This document shows, piece after piece, positions 4,302-51,003 of a stretch of DNA of 64,000 bases (position 1 is its first letter; each line of letters begins with the position of its first letter). Origin of the DNA: Bacteroidales bacterium (GTDB lineage Bacteria; Bacteroidota; Bacteroidia; Bacteroidales; UBA932); contig JAEEIJ010000073.1 of the NCBI GenBank assembly GCA_016281315.1, positions 8,651-72,650 on the forward strand, read 5' to 3'. Both the position numbers and the translations under genes were made by a program. The notes under the pieces are model-generated. The model made no database searches. It was not told where the DNA came from and saw nothing but the letters and a program-made list of their open reading frames with translations.

Positions 4302-5264
4302 TTAAAGTTTTATCGTAAGCGTAATGGGGTAGTGATCCGACGGGTGGCAGAAATTGTGGATCTCCTTTTCCCGCGAATCCCGCTCGGAGGCGGCAAAACC
4401 GTCGTAGAGCGGTTGCACGTGGGTAATTTTCTCGTTTAAAGCCGGTGTCACATACATCAGGTCTATGCGGCGTCCGGACAGGGTGCTCTTCTTGAATTCA
4501 CCCGGAAAGCGTTCGTGGACCAGGTCCAGATAAGGGGTGTTCCCAAGTACATAGTCGTGCACCAGGAATTCCGGGCTGTCCAGGGGCTTTCCGTAGTGGA
4601 AGTTGTCTACGGAGGAGATGGCGTTGAAATCCCCGGTCATCAGCCATAGCTGTTTGTCCGCGCCGGGAACCGTTCCAATGGTCTGCTCGCAGATATAGCG
4701 AATTTCCGTAGCGCGGAAGCGGTCTCCGTCGTGATTCTGGGCGCTCTCTTTCTGATTGTCGGCTTTATAGCCGTAGGCGAAAGGCCAGGTGTGCAGGGTG
4801 ACCACATTCAGTTCCCGGCCTCTTCCTAAATCTATTTTGGCCCATCCGGCTCCGTGTACCACGATGATGTCTTCACCGTCTCCCGTCAGGCGTTTTTCAA
4901 TGCGGATGGGATACTTCGACGTGATTACCTGCGGGAAGGTGTCCCTCTTCCCGCAGACGAGTACGTACTGGTGGCCGTAACGCCGGGCCAGCAGGTCCCA
5001 GTTCCAGGGGAGGTACTGCTCTTCCGGCATCTTCATCTTGACGGCCGTGTCCGTGAGATAGCGCGATTCGGCTTCACACCAGATACAGATGTCCGGGGCC
5101 TGTTCCTGCACAAAGGCTACGAAGTTGTCATAGTTGTTCCCCTGGTCGTGCCACATCCCGTTCTGGATGTTCCAGTAAAGGATTTTTACCTCTTTCCCTT
5201 TTCCGCACGCAATGGTGCAGAAAAGGGAAAGAAGCAAAGAAACAATAAAGAAGACTTTTCTCAT
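4302..5264 (-). CDS. Endonuclease/exonuclease/phosphatase (EEP) family lipoprotein
   Basis: Start re-called at MRKVFFIV (5264); motifs WNI, CEAE, TGDFN, RIDLMY, PSDHYP. Confidence 0.88.
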   Translation of the reverse strand: MRKVFFIVSLLLSLFCTIACGKGKEVKILYWNIQNGMWHDQGNNYDNFVAFVQEQAPDICIWCEAESRYLTDTAVKMKMPEEQYLPWNWDLLARRYGHQYVLVCGKRDTFPQVITSKYPIRIEKRLTGDGEDIIVVHGAGWAKIDLGRGRELNVVTLHTWPFAYGYKADNQKESAQNHDGDRFRATEIRYICEQTIGTVPGADKQLWLMTGDFNAISSVDNFHYGKPLDSPEFLVHDYVLGNTPYLDLVHERFPGEFKKSTLSGRRIDLMYVTPALNEKITHVQPLYDGFAASERDSREKEIHNFCHPSDHYPITLTIKL

Positions 5265-23778: not shown

Positions 23779-23868
23779 ATGCCTAGCGGTAAAAAGAGAA
23801 AGAGACATAAAATGGCGACGCACAAGCGTAAAAAGCGCTTGCGCAAGAACCGCCACAAGAAGAAGTAA
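23779..23868 (+). CDS. 29-aa basic ribosomal protein bS22-like (AURKAIP1/COX24 domain)
   Basis: Manual translation MPSGKKRKRHKMATHKRKKRLRKNRHKKK*; below the ORF-track cutoff. Confidence 0.85.
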   Translation: MPSGKKRKRHKMATHKRKKRLRKNRHKKK

Positions 23869-23940
23869 TTCTTCCGACTAAAAGGGCCTTGCGGAGGGAT
23901 TCGCGGGCCCTTCCTTCTATCCAAACCATAAAATTTCCAA

Positions 23941-25506
23941 ATGGAGTCTGTTAAACCGGACAAGGATCTGATTGTCGACGTTTCGGCGTCGGAGGTACAC
24001 ATCGCCCTGTTGGAAAACCACAGGCTGATCGAGTACAACACGGAGTCCAGCACTGGGAACAAGTTCACCGTGGGAGACGTTCACCTGGGAAAGGTGAAAA
24101 AGATCCTCCCGAACCTCAATGCTGCCTTTGTGGACATCGGCGACAAGAAGGAAGCCTTCATCCATTACCTGGACCTGGGACTCTATTTCCCCGCTTTCGA
24201 CCAGTTCGTGCGGGAATCCAACGGGAATACCAAGCTCAAGGACTTGTATTCCCGCATCAAGATCGGCCAGCCCCTTCCCAAGGAAGGCCGCATCGAAGAG
24301 TTCCTCCGCCCGGGACAGATGATCATCGCCCAGATTGTCAAGGAGCCCATCTCCACCAAGGGATCGCGACTGACTGCGGAAATTTCATTGGCAGGACGAA
24401 ACATCGTGCTTCTCCCCTTTGCAGAAAAGGTGTCCATCTCCCAGAAGATCGGCTCGAAAGAGGAGAAACGTAGACTCGAGACACTGGTCAGGAGCATCCT
24501 TCCCGTCAATTACGGGGCCATCATCCGCACGGCTGCGGAAGGCAAAAACGCCGCCACGCTGGTCGCGGAGACCGAGTCCCTCATTGAAAAATGGGAAAGC
24601 TCCTGGAAGAAGATTGCCAAAAACAAGAACGTCCAGCTGCTCTTTACGGAATACAGCAAAACCACTACCGTGTTGAGGGACCTCCTCAACGACTCGTTCT
24701 CCAACATCTGGATCAATGACGAACGGGTGGCCGATGAAGCCCGGAAGTACGTCTCCCTGATATCTCCGGAACAAGAGAAGATCGTTCACCTCTACGAAGG
24801 CAAACAGCCCATCTACGACCATTTCGAGGTCACCCGACAGATCAAAGGCTCCTTCGGCAAGGTGGTTCCGATGCGGCAGGGCGCCTATCTGGTAATCGAG
24901 ACCACGGAAGCGTTGAACGTGATCGACGTCAACAGCGGCATCCGCACCAAGACCTCGGACCAGGAGGAGAACTCCTTCGAGGTGAACAAGATCGCCGCGG
25001 AAGAGATTGCACGGCAGCTCAGGCTCCGCGATATGGGAGGCATCGTGATCGTGGACTTCATCGATATGGAGTCGAACGAGCACAAGAACGCCCTCCACAA
25101 GTATATGCAGGAACTGATGGAAGCCGACAGAGCCAAGCACAACGTGCTCCCGCTCACCAAGTTCGGGCTGATGCAGATCACCCGGCAGCGAATCAGGCCC
25201 GTCACGGAAATCAACACGATGGAGCAGTGCCCCGTGTGCCACGGTACCGGCAAAATTGCCTCCAGCGTGGTCATCGACGAGGAACTGGAACGCAAGATCG
25301 CGTTCTATTCCATCGAAAAGGGCATCCGCTACATCAAGCTGCAGACGAGCCCCATCCTGGGCTCCTACCTGAAGCGCGGACTGTTCAACTCCTTCCTGTC
25401 CAAGTGGCGCAAGCGCTACAAGATACGGATCGATCTCGAGGAAGTCACGGACTTTTCAGTCCTGCAGAATGAAATGCTGAATGAAAAAGGGGAGAAGCTC
25501 GAGTAG
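23941..25506 (+). CDS. rng: Ribonuclease E/G family
   Basis: AAFVDIG S1 domain, IDVNSG, LRLRDMGGIVIVDFIDM, CPVCHGTG. Confidence 0.92.
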   Translation: MESVKPDKDLIVDVSASEVHIALLENHRLIEYNTESSTGNKFTVGDVHLGKVKKILPNLNAAFVDIGDKKEAFIHYLDLGLYFPAFDQFVRESNGNTKLKDLYSRIKIGQPLPKEGRIEEFLRPGQMIIAQIVKEPISTKGSRLTAEISLAGRNIVLLPFAEKVSISQKIGSKEEKRRLETLVRSILPVNYGAIIRTAAEGKNAATLVAETESLIEKWESSWKKIAKNKNVQLLFTEYSKTTTVLRDLLNDSFSNIWINDERVADEARKYVSLISPEQEKIVHLYEGKQPIYDHFEVTRQIKGSFGKVVPMRQGAYLVIETTEALNVIDVNSGIRTKTSDQEENSFEVNKIAAEEIARQLRLRDMGGIVIVDFIDMESNEHKNALHKYMQELMEADRAKHNVLPLTKFGLMQITRQRIRPVTEINTMEQCPVCHGTGKIASSVVIDEELERKIAFYSIEKGIRYIKLQTSPILGSYLKRGLFNSFLSKWRKRYKIRIDLEEVTDFSVLQNEMLNEKGEKLE

Positions 25507-46446: not shown

Positions 46447-47396
46447 TAACAACCGGTTTCTTCGACGGTGTCCATCTGGGGCACCGTCACGTCCTTTCCG
46501 AAGTGGTTTCCGTTGCCAGAGAAAAGGGCGAAGAAGCCGTTGTGGTTACGTTCTGGCCGCATCCGCGGATGGTCCTGCAGCAGGATGCGCGGGAGTTCCG
46601 GCTGCTGAATACCCTGGAAGAAAAGAAGGAATTGCTTTCAGGTGCCGGCATCGACCGCGTGGAAGTGCTGCCCTTTACCCGCGAGTTCGCCGCCCTTACG
46701 GCCTCGGAGTATCTCACGATGCTCCGCGACCGCTTCGGCGCTTCTGTGGTAGTGATGGGGTATGATAATAGAATAGGTTCAGATAAAAGGACGGCCGTCG
46801 AGATTGCGGCCCAGGGGTCTCCGAGCCCTTCGGTCGCTTCGCTCCCTTCGTCCCTCCCAACGTCGCTTCGCTCCGTCGGGCCCCTCCCGTTCACGTGGCC
46901 ACGGGCGGCCACGGGTTCGGAGAACCCCTGGCCCTCCATCTCTTTCGATTCTCCTTCGCCGCCTCTATCTTCTACACAAATTCGTCACGCGCTGGAAGAG
47001 GGGAGGATTGACGAGGCCAATGCGATGCTGGGATACCGGTACGGGCTGCAGGGCGTGGTGGTGGCGGGGAACCGGATGGGACGCACCATCGGCTTTCCCA
47101 CGGCGAATATGCAGCTCTACGAGCCGCTGAAGCTGGTGCCTGGGAACGGCGTGTATGCCGTTGAGGCAGAGGTACTTGGACGGAAGTTTAAGGGGATGTG
47201 CAACATCGGCCTGCGCCCTACGGTGGGCGGGACTTTCCGCACGGTGGAAACCCACATCCTGGACTTCGACGAGGACATCTACGGCCTTCCCCTTGACATC
47301 CGTTTTGCACGCCGCATCCGCGACGAACGCAAGTTCCCTTCCCTGGAGGCCCTGCGGGAGCAGCTGGAAAAGGACAAAGAACAATGCAGTATATGA
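46437..47396 (+). CDS. ribF: Bifunctional riboflavin kinase / FAD synthetase with palindromic in-frame insertion
   Basis: GFFDGVHLGH, SSTQIR, GRTIGFPTAN, NIGLRPT, RDERKF; GTG start at 46437 preferred. Confidence 0.92.
   Translation: MAVVTTGFFDGVHLGHRHVLSEVVSVAREKGEEAVVVTFWPHPRMVLQQDAREFRLLNTLEEKKELLSGAGIDRVEVLPFTREFAALTASEYLTMLRDRFGASVVVMGYDNRIGSDKRTAVEIAAQGSPSPSVASLPSSLPTSLRSVGPLPFTWPRAATGSENPWPSISFDSPSPPLSSTQIRHALEEGRIDEANAMLGYRYGLQGVVVAGNRMGRTIGFPTANMQLYEPLKLVPGNGVYAVEAEVLGRKFKGMCNIGLRPTVGGTFRTVETHILDFDEDIYGLPLDIRFARRIRDERKFPSLEALREQLEKDKEQCSI
46808..46933. repeat. ~126-bp palindromic element inside the ribF coding sequence
   Basis: Arms GGCCCAGGGGTCTCCGAGCCC / GGGTTCGGAGAACCCCTGGCC; internal direct repeats GTCGCTTCGCTCC x2 and GGCCACGGG x2. 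Confidence 0.8.
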
Positions 47397-48593: not shown

Positions 48594-48998
48594 ATGGCTA
48601 CCATTTTCACCCGCATCGCCCAGGGCGAGATTCCTTCCTACAAATGCGCGGAGAGCGAGGATTTCTACGCTTTCCTGGACATTTCCCCGCTCGCGAAGGG
48701 TCACACCCTCGTCATCCCCAAACACGTGGAGGACGACTACATCTTCCACCTGGACCAGAAGACCTACGAAGGCCTGTGGGCCTTTGCCCGCAAGGTGGCC
48801 GTAGCACTGAAAAACGCCGTCCCGTGCAAGCGGGTGGGCGTTGCCGTGCTGGGCATGGAAGTCCCGCACACGCACATCCACCTGGTGCCGCTCCAGACGG
48901 AAGGGGATATGGATTTCCGCAAGGCCAAGCTCCAGCTGCAGCCCGAAGAAATGGCCGGCATCGCCGCCAAAATCTTCTCCGAATATGAAAAGCTTTAA
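48594..48998 (+). CDS. HIT family nucleotide hydrolase
   Basis: GHTLVIPK and HTHIHLVP histidine triad. Confidence 0.92.
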   Translation: MATIFTRIAQGEIPSYKCAESEDFYAFLDISPLAKGHTLVIPKHVEDDYIFHLDQKTYEGLWAFARKVAVALKNAVPCKRVGVAVLGMEVPHTHIHLVPLQTEGDMDFRKAKLQLQPEEMAGIAAKIFSEYEKL

Positions 48999-50094
48999 AT
49001 GGATAGCGGGCCTGGCCGCGCTCGTGCTCGCGGTTGCCTGCGAGGGCAATACCTTCATTGAAGGCGAGCTGCACGAAGGCGCCGGGGAAAAAGTGATTCT
49101 CAAACTCCTGGACGTGAACCGTTTCCAGGTGCTGGATACCCTCCAGACGGAGGCCGATGGCTCCTTCGGCTATTCCCTGGAGCTGGAGGATGGAAAGCCC
49201 GAGTTCGTCTATCTCTTCTACGGGGAGCGTCAGATTGCCTCCCTGCTGCTGCAGAAGGGCGATAAGGTAACGGTACATACCGACACCCTGGGCCTCTATA
49301 GCGTGGAAGGCTCCGAGGAATCCCTGAAACTCCAGAAGGTGGAGCGCGAATACGGCAAGTTCCTCCGCGAAATGCGGAAAATCGTCACCACCGAACGTTT
49401 CCCGGACAAGGACCTCTCCCGCTGTTATGTGGATTATTACCGGAACCGCCTGAAGTATGTGGTGGAGAACTGCCACTCGCTCACCGTGGTGCCCGTCCTG
49501 TTCCAGCAGGTGAATCCCTCGCTGCCGGTGTTCAGCCAGCCTACCGACGGAATCATTATGCGCAGCATTGCGGATTCCCTCAAAACCCTTTATCCGCAGT
49601 CCCGCTATGTGAAGGCGCTGGAGAAGGAATCGGCCCGCCGTATCGGCCGGATGGGCGTGGAGGCCAAACTTCAGAATGCGCAGGAGGTGGGCTTCGTGGA
49701 CATCGCCCTGCCTTCGATGGAGGGGAAGAGCGTGAAGCTGAGCGAATCGCTGGGGAAGATGACCCTCCTCTATTTCTGGGCATCGACGGCCGAACTGAAG
49801 ATGTTCAACCTGGATGCCCTCATGCCGCTGTATGAGGAGTTCCATGGGAAGGGCTTCGAGATTTACGCCGTTTCGCTGGACAGCGACAAGACAGCCTGGG
49901 CCCGTGCCGTGCGCAACCAGAAACTGCCCTGGGTGAACGTCTGTGATACCCGCGGGGTGCAGTCTCCTTACATCGGCTCCTATGGGATTGGCGCCCTCCC
50001 GATGATGTGGATGCTGAACGGCGATGCCATCGACCCTGACTTCGAAGCCGGCAGTCTGGAGGAAATCCGCCGCTATCTTCGCCGGAAACTCTAA
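48985..50094 (+). CDS. TlpA/AhpC-TSA-like lipoprotein lacking the CxxC motif
   Basis: Start re-called at MKSFKWIAG; lipobox AVAC; LLYFWAST, FEIYAVSLD, LPWVNVCD. Confidence 0.75.
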   Translation: MKSFKWIAGLAALVLAVACEGNTFIEGELHEGAGEKVILKLLDVNRFQVLDTLQTEADGSFGYSLELEDGKPEFVYLFYGERQIASLLLQKGDKVTVHTDTLGLYSVEGSEESLKLQKVEREYGKFLREMRKIVTTERFPDKDLSRCYVDYYRNRLKYVVENCHSLTVVPVLFQQVNPSLPVFSQPTDGIIMRSIADSLKTLYPQSRYVKALEKESARRIGRMGVEAKLQNAQEVGFVDIALPSMEGKSVKLSESLGKMTLLYFWASTAELKMFNLDALMPLYEEFHGKGFEIYAVSLDSDKTAWARAVRNQKLPWVNVCDTRGVQSPYIGSYGIGALPMMWMLNGDAIDPDFEAGSLEEIRRYLRRKL

Positions 50095-50114
50095 TCCCTT
50101 TCCGTTTCCCCTAA

Positions 50115-50318
50115 GGTGGACCAGGTCCAAGCCATTTTTGGACCTGGTCCACTTCATATCTGGACGAGGTTCGATTTAAGCCCCTGGACCAGGTCCAGCT
50201 ACATTGAACTACAGGTGTCTGGAAGGCACAACCGGTGGACCAGGTCCAGCACCTAAAAGTAAACCTCGTCCAAAAATGAGAAAGACCTCGTCCAAAAATG
50301 CTCTGGACCAGGTCCACC
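50115..50318. repeat. Mirror-symmetric array of eight 13-bp palindromic sites (MITE-like)
   Basis: TGGACCWGGTCCA or degenerate TGGACGAGGT sites starting at 50117, 50139, 50161, 50185, 50236, 50260, 50282, 50304. Confidence 0.85.
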
Positions 50319-50325
50319 AAACAAA

Positions 50326-51003
50326 TCAAAACAGCTTTTTCCGGGAAACGGTAGCTACGAAATCTTTCAGATAGAATGGTTCGAAGTACGCAATGTCTTC
50401 GAACCTTTTTTCTTCCCAGGCTTTCTGCGCCAGAATTGCCATAGCGGCAACATCCGGCCAGGATTCCTGAAACTGCGCATGGGGATGGGTGATGACTTCG
50501 CGGCACTTGAGGGCGCCGTCGCCCGTGAAAAGGACGGGACCCTGCGCCAATTCATCGGCGAAGGAATCCGGGCCCACGACTTTGGCCTCTACCGGTGTGA
50601 GCCGACGGCCGTCGGCCGAGTAAACGGCCGTATAGACTTCCATCCTGCGGGCGTCGATCATGGGAACGATATAACGGAAAGCCTCCGGATTATGGTTGCT
50701 GGCCACGATGTCCAGCGTGCCGACGGCGATAAGCGGAATCCCAGCCCCGAAAGACAGTCCTTTTGCCGTGGAAACGCCCACCCGAAGGCCGGTATACGAA
50801 CCGGGGCCGGAACTGACGCAGACGGCGTCGCAGTCGGCCACGCCAAGGCCTTGGCTATGAAGCACTTCCTGGACCAGCGGTGCCGTGAGGGATGCCTGCC
50901 GGCGGGGTTCATCGCAGGTGCGGGAGGCTACTACCGTACCATTATGGGCCAGGCCTATGGAAAGCCTGGCGGTGGCGGTGTCTATGAGGAGAATTCTTGC
51001 CAT
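50326..51003 (-). CDS. tsaB: tRNA threonylcarbamoyladenosine biosynthesis protein TsaB
   Basis: IDTAT, GPGSYTGLRVG, IDARRMEVY. Confidence 0.93.
   Translation of the reverse strand: MARILLIDTATARLSIGLAHNGTVVASRTCDEPRRQASLTAPLVQEVLHSQGLGVADCDAVCVSSGPGSYTGLRVGVSTAKGLSFGAGIPLIAVGTLDIVASNHNPEAFRYIVPMIDARRMEVYTAVYSADGRRLTPVEAKVVGPDSFADELAQGPVLFTGDGALKCREVITHPHAQFQESWPDVAAMAILAQKAWEEKRFEDIAYFEPFYLKDFVATVSRKKLF

Follow-up and report, generated by a model that had tools for sequence, protein, structure and literature searches.

The array of 13-bp units at positions 50117 to 50316 of the window (the whole 64,000-nucleotide stretch of DNA analyzed here) is best explained as one copy of a non-autonomous REP/REPIN-like repeat partnered by P0001, a RAYT-type Y1 HUH tyrosine transposase encoded outside the window in the same genome; we put the probability of this reading at roughly 0.75. 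P0001 would move the arrays or maintain them. Cognate repeats flank the gene, repeat and protein change together between lineages, and the gene is inherited at a fixed locus, a combination that constitutes the defining signature of REP/REPIN-RAYT systems (PMC3116915, PMC3337134, PMC6006769).

The window array lies between convergent tlpA-like and tsaB genes and comprises eight units of 13 bp, distributed over two inverted arms that enclose a core of 38 bp. The preliminary description had reported five perfect and three variant sites in mirror-symmetric spacing, and this anatomy was reproduced exactly: the units start at 50117, 50139, 50161, 50185, 50236, 50260, 50282 and 50304, five of the eight are perfect (TGGACCWGGTCCA), three are variants of the TGGACGAGGT type, and the spacing is 22/22/24/51/24/22/22. 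The features of the window are as follows.

50117 to 50316, no strand: whole array, one copy of the repeat family (133 bits, nhmmer with the family profile)
50117 to 50129, no strand: unit 1, outer left, perfect TGGACCAGGTCCA
50139 to 50151, no strand: unit 2, perfect TGGACCTGGTCCA
50161 to 50173, no strand: unit 3, conserved variant TGGACGAGGTTCG
50185 to 50197, no strand: unit 4, inner left, perfect
50198 to 50235, no strand: core, 38 bp, a weakly conserved imperfect palindrome
50236 to 50248, no strand: unit 5, inner right, perfect
50260 to 50272, no strand: unit 6, mirrored variant TAAACCTCGTCCA
50282 to 50294, no strand: unit 7, mirrored variant AAGACCTCGTCCA
50304 to 50316, no strand: unit 8, outer right, perfect
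50095 to 50325, no strand: intergenic spacer of 231 bp that contains the array
48841 to 50094, plus strand: left neighbor, a TlpA-like thiol-disulfide oxidoreductase (DUF4369 and thioredoxin-like domain), outside the element
50326 to 51003, minus strand: right neighbor, a TsaB-like protein (PF00814), outside the element
4516 to 4528, no strand: solitary perfect unit in coding DNA, read VDQVQ or LDLVH

A repeat finder recovers the two 83-nt arms (50115 to 50197 and 50236 to 50318) as 76% complementary sequences 38 nt apart. The arms are inverted copies with drifted spacers, as had been described: spacer sequences are unlike between the arms, yet the T-run adjoining the next unit is kept. The core has the family consensus ..TGTGCC....AGG..CCT....GGCACA... 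The 13-mer occurs seven times in the window with at most one mismatch (0.09 expected from shuffles). Solo perfect units, read VDQVQ, VDLVH or LDLVH, are also present in coding DNA, nine in the genome including the one at 4516 to 4528 of the window, where Markov models predict 0.4–1.3, a 7- to 24-fold over-representation.

The genome to which the window belongs (G000) is a MAG of 2.1 Mb with 58% G+C in 97 contigs. It contains 44 perfect units, compared with 0 matches to the reversed control pattern, and a search with the family profile (nhmmer) detected eight arrays at 100–142 bits with no intermediate scores and no decayed copies (C1:10812, C15:23305, C51:35241, C70:189867, C72:49324, C72:84355, C76:15466 and the window copy). 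All eight have the inner 24/51/24 spacing, while the number of 22-bp outer units varies. Overall identity among these copies is 70–80%; units and spacer lengths are kept, and spacer sequences differ except for the T-run. A weak nhmmer match at C80:33925-34068 was considered as a decayed copy and rejected, since it belongs to another family with GGCGCAGGT units. This array and a second one at C72:84560-84680 carry AGGT- or ACGTG-containing units (GGCGCAGGTTCC; TTCAGACGTGCTCC) and probably belong with other RAYT-like paralogues. The commonest 12-mers of the genome other than those of the array unit all contain GGCCGATG / CATCGGCC, an over-represented 8-mer, in up to 51 copies and in variable contexts.

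Beyond this genome, a scan of all GTDB species representatives yielded 72 further loci in ∼17 rumen Bacteroidales MAGs of the RUG, RGIG and UBA series, most commonly with the layouts 22/22/24/51/24/22 and 22/24/51/24/22 and in some cases as tandem arrays. The array is therefore not a single occurrence, and its spacing recurs both within the genome and among relatives, with the inner 24/51/24 kept. Each carrier genome has 6–17 arrays, located between convergent, divergent or co-directional genes as well as inside ORFs. A search of sampled genomes of the genus, order and family with the core pattern gave no matches (24+16 genomes, then 400); only the collection-wide scan reached the carrier clade, which is narrow. 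Rfam, even at a permissive threshold, gave no match to the array. A restriction-site effect was considered, given the pentamers CCWGG and GGWCC within the unit, and rejected, since the genome shows avoidance of neither. The 13-bp units, the 9–11-bp linkers of conserved length and the inverted arms rule out CRISPR, in line with the preliminary description.

Comparison of relatives indicates that the family has moved. In three related MAGs, the stop codons of the tlpA-like and tsaB genes lie at most 10 bp apart, as opposed to 231 bp in the window, so the window copy is a lineage-specific insertion into a site that is empty in these relatives. Neither the window copy nor the burst copies of a second genome, G444, show an evident target-site duplication. 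This 1.6-Mb MAG contains 17 arrays, ∼10 of which are roughly 90% identical across units, spacers and core, which points to a recent burst. The earlier proposal of a non-autonomous repeated element is borne out by the eight genome copies, the 72 loci elsewhere, the empty site and this one burst. Copies from the burst (L016, L038, L080) are embedded in mosaics of short repeats, with CAGACCTGGCAC units and a CTGAAAAAG...CTTTTTCAG inverted pair, in a BIME-like arrangement.

Close to a third of the family resides in genes: 20 of 70 canonical copies (∼30%) lie within ORFs of at least 250 aa. In the window's genome this applies to three of the eight arrays, in murB, a GT2 glycosyltransferase and a THUMP-like methyltransferase, each copy being 156 bp long. 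This is the minimal six-unit form, equal to 52 codons, and its inner spacings are multiples of 3; outer-unit expansions within genes have 24- or 30-bp periods. The 13-mer is stop-free in all six frames, the element has one frame open on both strands, and the frame used in genes is nearly constant (xDQVQ-G-x-FGRG-..-GPGP-(core)-GPGP-..-PxPK-x-GWTRS). Alignment with 12 MurB orthologues of the same genus maps the MurB insert to a short variable loop; in the AF2 model the MurB core is confident, whereas the insert (residues 74–130) has a pLDDT of ∼30 and is predicted to be disordered. The units could be compared with their surroundings at orthologous insertions within genes, of which there are four sets, each common to 2–4 species. 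Between species, the outer units, which played no part in locus detection, are 99–100% identical at the DNA level, as against 75% for the flanking coding sequence and 71–74% for spacers and core. Rickettsia (RPE) and some REP families provide known examples of palindromic repeats inserted in frame (PMC3733652).

Two further observations concern repeats in coding DNA. Tandem repeats that are in frame but have other periods, for instance 51 bp or 22/29 bp (VDQVQAQQSTAPSEPHP-like; L029, L043, L061, L065, L068), contain the 13-mer as well, and the unit thus also seeds coding tandem repeats. In addition, murB carries a second in-frame insert of ∼45 aa that is absent from most orthologues (G000:C15 ∼23847-23982; L084:1848-1983). 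At the DNA level this insert is another palindromic element, whose terminal inverted repeats are perfect over 17 bp; it also has GCGAAGCG repeats and an ssDNA fold at z = −4.9, and the segment it encodes has a pLDDT below 50 in the model. It looks like a member of the same family as an element in ribF at 46808 to 46933 of the window.

As single-stranded DNA, the window element is predicted to fold into one long hairpin (−56 kcal/mol, z = −9.6), and the murB copy also folds well (z = −6.3). Units 1 and 2 alone have the potential for an ssDNA hairpin with a 15-bp stem (−18 kcal/mol). A conserved continuous hairpin was nevertheless rejected: in a test for compensatory pairing between the arms, the result for spacers and core was contrary to expectation, with a complementarity of 0.39 within the same element versus 0.44–0.52 between different elements, so a continuous hairpin is not what is conserved. 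Slight co-variation between arms is confined to the variant units (0.80 versus 0.77). The conserved features are therefore the units and their spacing rather than a continuous stem. Recognition unit by unit would fit an HUH domain acting on short hairpins, an HTH acting on duplex DNA, or both.

Both kinds of domain are predicted in the candidate partner protein. A Pfam Y1_Tnp search of five array-bearing genomes gave matches in all five, one of them 30 bp from the array on contig C70. The protein in question, P0001 (319 aa, G000:C70:188881-189837, minus strand), is encoded by a single-copy gene beside dprA and is flanked by arrays. Its score against PF01797 (20.2 bits) falls under the gathering cut-off of 23, an NCBIfam search gave no match, and searches of PDB sequences with the protein and with a profile also gave no matches. 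Its 798 homologues include proteins annotated as RayT or IS200-like, and the alignment of 35 homologues reveals two invariant motifs, the HUH signature S64-N65-H66-x-H68 and the tyrosine motif A-Y-I-x-R-N-A-x-D-N (A125-Y126...N130). For its AF2 model (pLDDT 90.6), two methods rank 4ER8, the structure of the E. coli REP-associated tyrosine transposase with its REP hairpin, first among PDB entries (Foldseek probability 1.0; VIA Z 12.0 over 150 of 165 residues), followed by IS608 (VIA Z 8.2), ISDra2 and IS200 TnpA. Residues 238–304 of the model resemble DnaA domain IV (VIA Z 6.1–6.4). A second RAYT-like gene in the same genome (332 aa, G000:C64:26815-27810, minus strand) has HIHD and YIANNP motifs and short GGGAGGAG-type hairpins on its flanks, and represents a separate Y1 family.

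Loci of P0001 homologues, gathered by protein similarity from metagenomes and genomes, show a strict adjacency of gene and array. Perfect units lie 42–181 bp upstream of the gene at all 19 orthologue loci (at least 64% identity), among them P0001's own locus (L124), and often downstream too; 10 of these 19 loci were found by protein similarity alone. None of the 31 paralogue loci (at most 62% identity) has perfect units. Linkage to dprA is kept in the P0001 clade and in its sister clade (54–62% identity), and at the dprA-linked locus of the sister clade an array with 22/24/51/24 spacing is built from another unit, TGGGCCAGGTGGG in the left arm and its complement, CCCACCTGGCCCA, in the right arm. 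This unit is neither a dyad nor palindromic. More distant paralogues have flanking units of their own, TGATCAAGGTCTC at 23/24/51/24 and CGTCGCAGGTCC at a 22-bp period, all of which share AGGT, and the repeat family of one paralogue begins with CGTC. The 22-bp period and the fixed geometry emphasized in the preliminary description are therefore conserved even across cognate families with different units.

Across genomes, an orthologue was found in 9 of 16 array-bearing MAGs versus 0 of 30 array-free genomes of the genus. The remaining seven array-bearing MAGs, G444 with its burst included, yielded no orthologue of at least 64% identity; all seven are incomplete, so that absence of the gene is not proven by these assemblies. 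The array had also been proposed to represent an undescribed family. The motif is indeed absent from the searched literature, which contained no paper with the 13-mer and no description of the repeat family, but the kind of element is a known one: with a RAYT-like Y1 HUH tyrosine transposase as the product of the associated gene, it is that of REP/REPIN-RAYT systems.

In the mechanism that we propose, P0001 would recognize the 13-nt units, perhaps displayed as hairpins when inverted arms or neighboring units fold in single-stranded DNA at replication forks; alternatively, its C-terminal HTH would bind the units in duplex DNA. The HUH/Tyr center would then nick and rejoin DNA, and the arrays would as a result be copied to new places and kept uniform. 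Insertions would be tolerated where they are harmless. One such place is a gene-poor spacer, of which the interval separating the tlpA-like and tsaB stop codons is an example; another is a surface loop of a protein, where stop-free units and one stop-free frame would allow the element to be translated as a disordered Gly/Pro-rich loop.

The alternative that survives best, although we regard it as unlikely, assigns the arrays a host function as protein-binding scaffolds in duplex DNA. An HTH protein, possibly the C-terminus of P0001, would occupy the phased units along a single helix face and assemble a nucleoprotein complex for chromosome organization or regulation, and the arrays would be kept by host-level selection and not by transposition. 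Units that are perfect dyads at 22–24-bp periods with phased T-runs fit such a role, as do a spacing that outlasts changes of unit sequence, near-complete conservation of units at orthologous sites where spacers drift and arm complementarity is not maintained, a genome without decayed copies, the over-represented solo units and the DnaA-domain-IV-like fold at the P0001 C-terminus. Array copies in unrelated contexts, including the inside of ORFs, are harder to reconcile with it, as are the lineage-specific insertion in the window and the burst of near-identical copies in one genome; moreover, the sister-clade unit lacks dyad symmetry, so binding need not involve a dimer at every unit.

The scaffold is compatible with the REPIN-RAYT reading and does not exclude it. 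By analogy with DnaA on oriC, the P0001 HTH might load several copies of the protein onto phased duplex units, with the arrays selected as working parts of a RAYT-array partnership that is inherited vertically, a possibility that we hold tentatively and consider a minority one. If true, it would explain why the 22/24/51/24 geometry survives replacement of the unit sequence, why units at orthologous sites are 99–100% identical even in essential genes, and why the genome contains no decayed copies; the element would then also be shaped for translatability, with stop-free units and one frame open on both strands.

Far less probable is an element acting at the RNA level, in which a long hairpin in the 3′ UTR terminates both convergent genes or stabilizes their mRNAs. 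Many classical REPs are thought to act as terminating or mRNA-stabilizing RNA hairpins (PMC3733652), and the position of the window copy between convergent genes, its strong hairpin potential and the weak terminator-like site formed on both strands by each outer unit and the following T-run would all suit this role. Yet ∼30% of copies lie inside ORFs and must be transcribed through, others lie between divergent genes, and Rfam contains no match. Conservation also concerns the primary sequence of the units and not just their pairing, and complementarity of the arms outside the units is not maintained. Terminator-like hits number two, compared with 1.0 ± 0.9 in shuffles, and their stems have only 5 bp. 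These weak hits, together with the transcribed in-gene copies, make a role in termination unlikely, in agreement with the preliminary description, which had set a terminator aside.

It is more improbable still that the array is a MITE of a DDE-type transposon with several transposase-binding sites per end, similar to Tn7, Mu or IS21, although its inverted arms with iterated sites at a 22-bp period are reminiscent of such elements. Tn7 ends carry 22-bp TnsB sites. None of the 80 loci, which come from MAGs and hence from assemblies that under-represent IS elements, includes a longer copy enclosing a DDE transposase, target-site duplications are not evident at the window or burst copies, and arrays consistently bound no gene other than the one for the Y1 HUH protein. 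The comparison with the ends of DDE transposons (IS21, Tn7, Mu) drawn in the preliminary description is accordingly not sustained, with a Y1 HUH protein as the associated gene and no DDE transposase seen at these loci. Finally, a protein-coding module, in which a Gly/Pro-rich peptide repeat is the functional product and intergenic copies are pseudogenes, accounts for the single frame of the in-gene copies (xDQVQ..FGRG..GPGP..GPGP..PxPK..WTRS) but is effectively refuted by conservation of the 13-mer in three reading frames and at synonymous positions, and is further opposed by stops in that frame in 27–28 of 50 other copies, by the predicted disorder of the encoded segment (pLDDT ∼30) and by the arrays next to the RAYT gene, which are non-coding.

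Nearly all work on REPIN-RAYT systems has dealt with extragenic hairpins of Proteobacteria, whereas the present system belongs to abundant rumen Bacteroidales. It departs from the studied systems in three respects: the partner enzyme has an extra DnaA-like domain that is predicted to bind DNA, the repeat is a strictly phased multi-site structure whose geometry outlives the sequence of its sites, and many copies are predicted to be translated within housekeeping genes such as murB. Two questions become testable as a consequence, namely what RAYTs recognize and why REPIN populations persist. For the annotation of rumen MAGs, the arrays inflate ORFs and add disordered loops of ∼52 aa; they probably also break contigs.

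Compared with the REP/REPIN-RAYT systems of E. coli, Pseudomonas and Stenotrophomonas, the present system shares dispersed short palindromic units, inverted arms with the potential for a long hairpin, and a single-copy Y1 HUH gene flanked by cognate repeats (a ‘REPtron’). Repeat and protein change in step from lineage to lineage, inheritance is vertical at a fixed locus, here beside dprA, and the repeat populations are small and persistent, all as in those systems. Unlike classical REPs, however, the consensus of the array family lacks the GTAG or CGTC tetranucleotide that marks the base of the hairpin, and unlike classical REPINs, which have one REP per arm, the arrays consist of perfect 13-bp dyads in groups of 6–8 or more units with a fixed 22/24/51/24/22 spacing. 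While classical REPs are extragenic and numerous, ∼30% of the copies here are intragenic and a genome has 6–17 arrays. P0001 also differs from classical RAYTs, being 319 aa long with NHCH and AYIxRNAxDN motifs and a large C-terminal domain that ends in a DnaA-domain-IV-like HTH, and the rumen Bacteroidales hosts differ from the known ones.

Enterobacterial BIMEs offer a second parallel. They alternate Y and Z types of REP, are extragenic, and bind IHF, gyrase and Pol I. The arrays resemble them as modular clusters of palindromic units with variable unit number and fixed linker lengths, and the G444 arrays, like BIMEs, are combined with other repeat motifs. Plasmid centromeres and iterons are similar in outline only at the level of the site layout. 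The R1 parC centromere has two repeat blocks around a core, and the arrays likewise have two blocks of phased sites placed symmetrically around a core of ∼38–39 bp. In contrast to such arrays, the present ones are dispersed over the chromosome and also occur inside ORFs; their neighborhood lacks par and rep genes, and the gene associated with them is transposase-like. The earlier analogy to iterons and centromeres is thus not upheld, given eight dispersed chromosomal loci with unrelated neighbors.

The in-gene copies recall RPE and the intragenic REPs of Opitutus, Thauera and others (PMC3733652), which are in-frame inserts in functional and even essential genes; as with RPE, the inserts would be translated as extra loop residues and the frame used is open. 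The host phylum differs. Unlike RPE, for which no transposase partner is established, the arrays have a cognate RAYT-like gene, found by adjacency and co-variation.

Among TnpA_Y1 proteins, subclass 2.1 has a C-terminal Bac_DnaA_C/HTH domain with no REPs found nearby, and atypical secondary structures flank the Bacteroidetes members of subclass 2.6 (Quentin et al. 2018, PMC6006769). P0001 shares with TnpA_Y1 the Y1 HUH core with NHxH, with subclass 2.1 the DnaA_C-like C-terminal HTH, and with subclass 2.6 the Bacteroidetes host and atypical flanking structures that are repeated elsewhere in the genome. As tabulated, however, neither subclass accommodates its NHCH motif, its YIPRNA motif (instead of YIxxNP) or its length of 319 aa (compared with 179–238), and in contrast to subclass 2.1 as reported, the HTH-bearing P0001 is flanked by cognate repeats.

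As far as the literature was searched, a strictly phased multi-unit geometry that persists despite a changed unit sequence has not been described. This is a system of the REP/REPIN-RAYT type with an unusual, undescribed architecture, which combines the modularity of BIMEs with in-frame copies similar to those of RPE.
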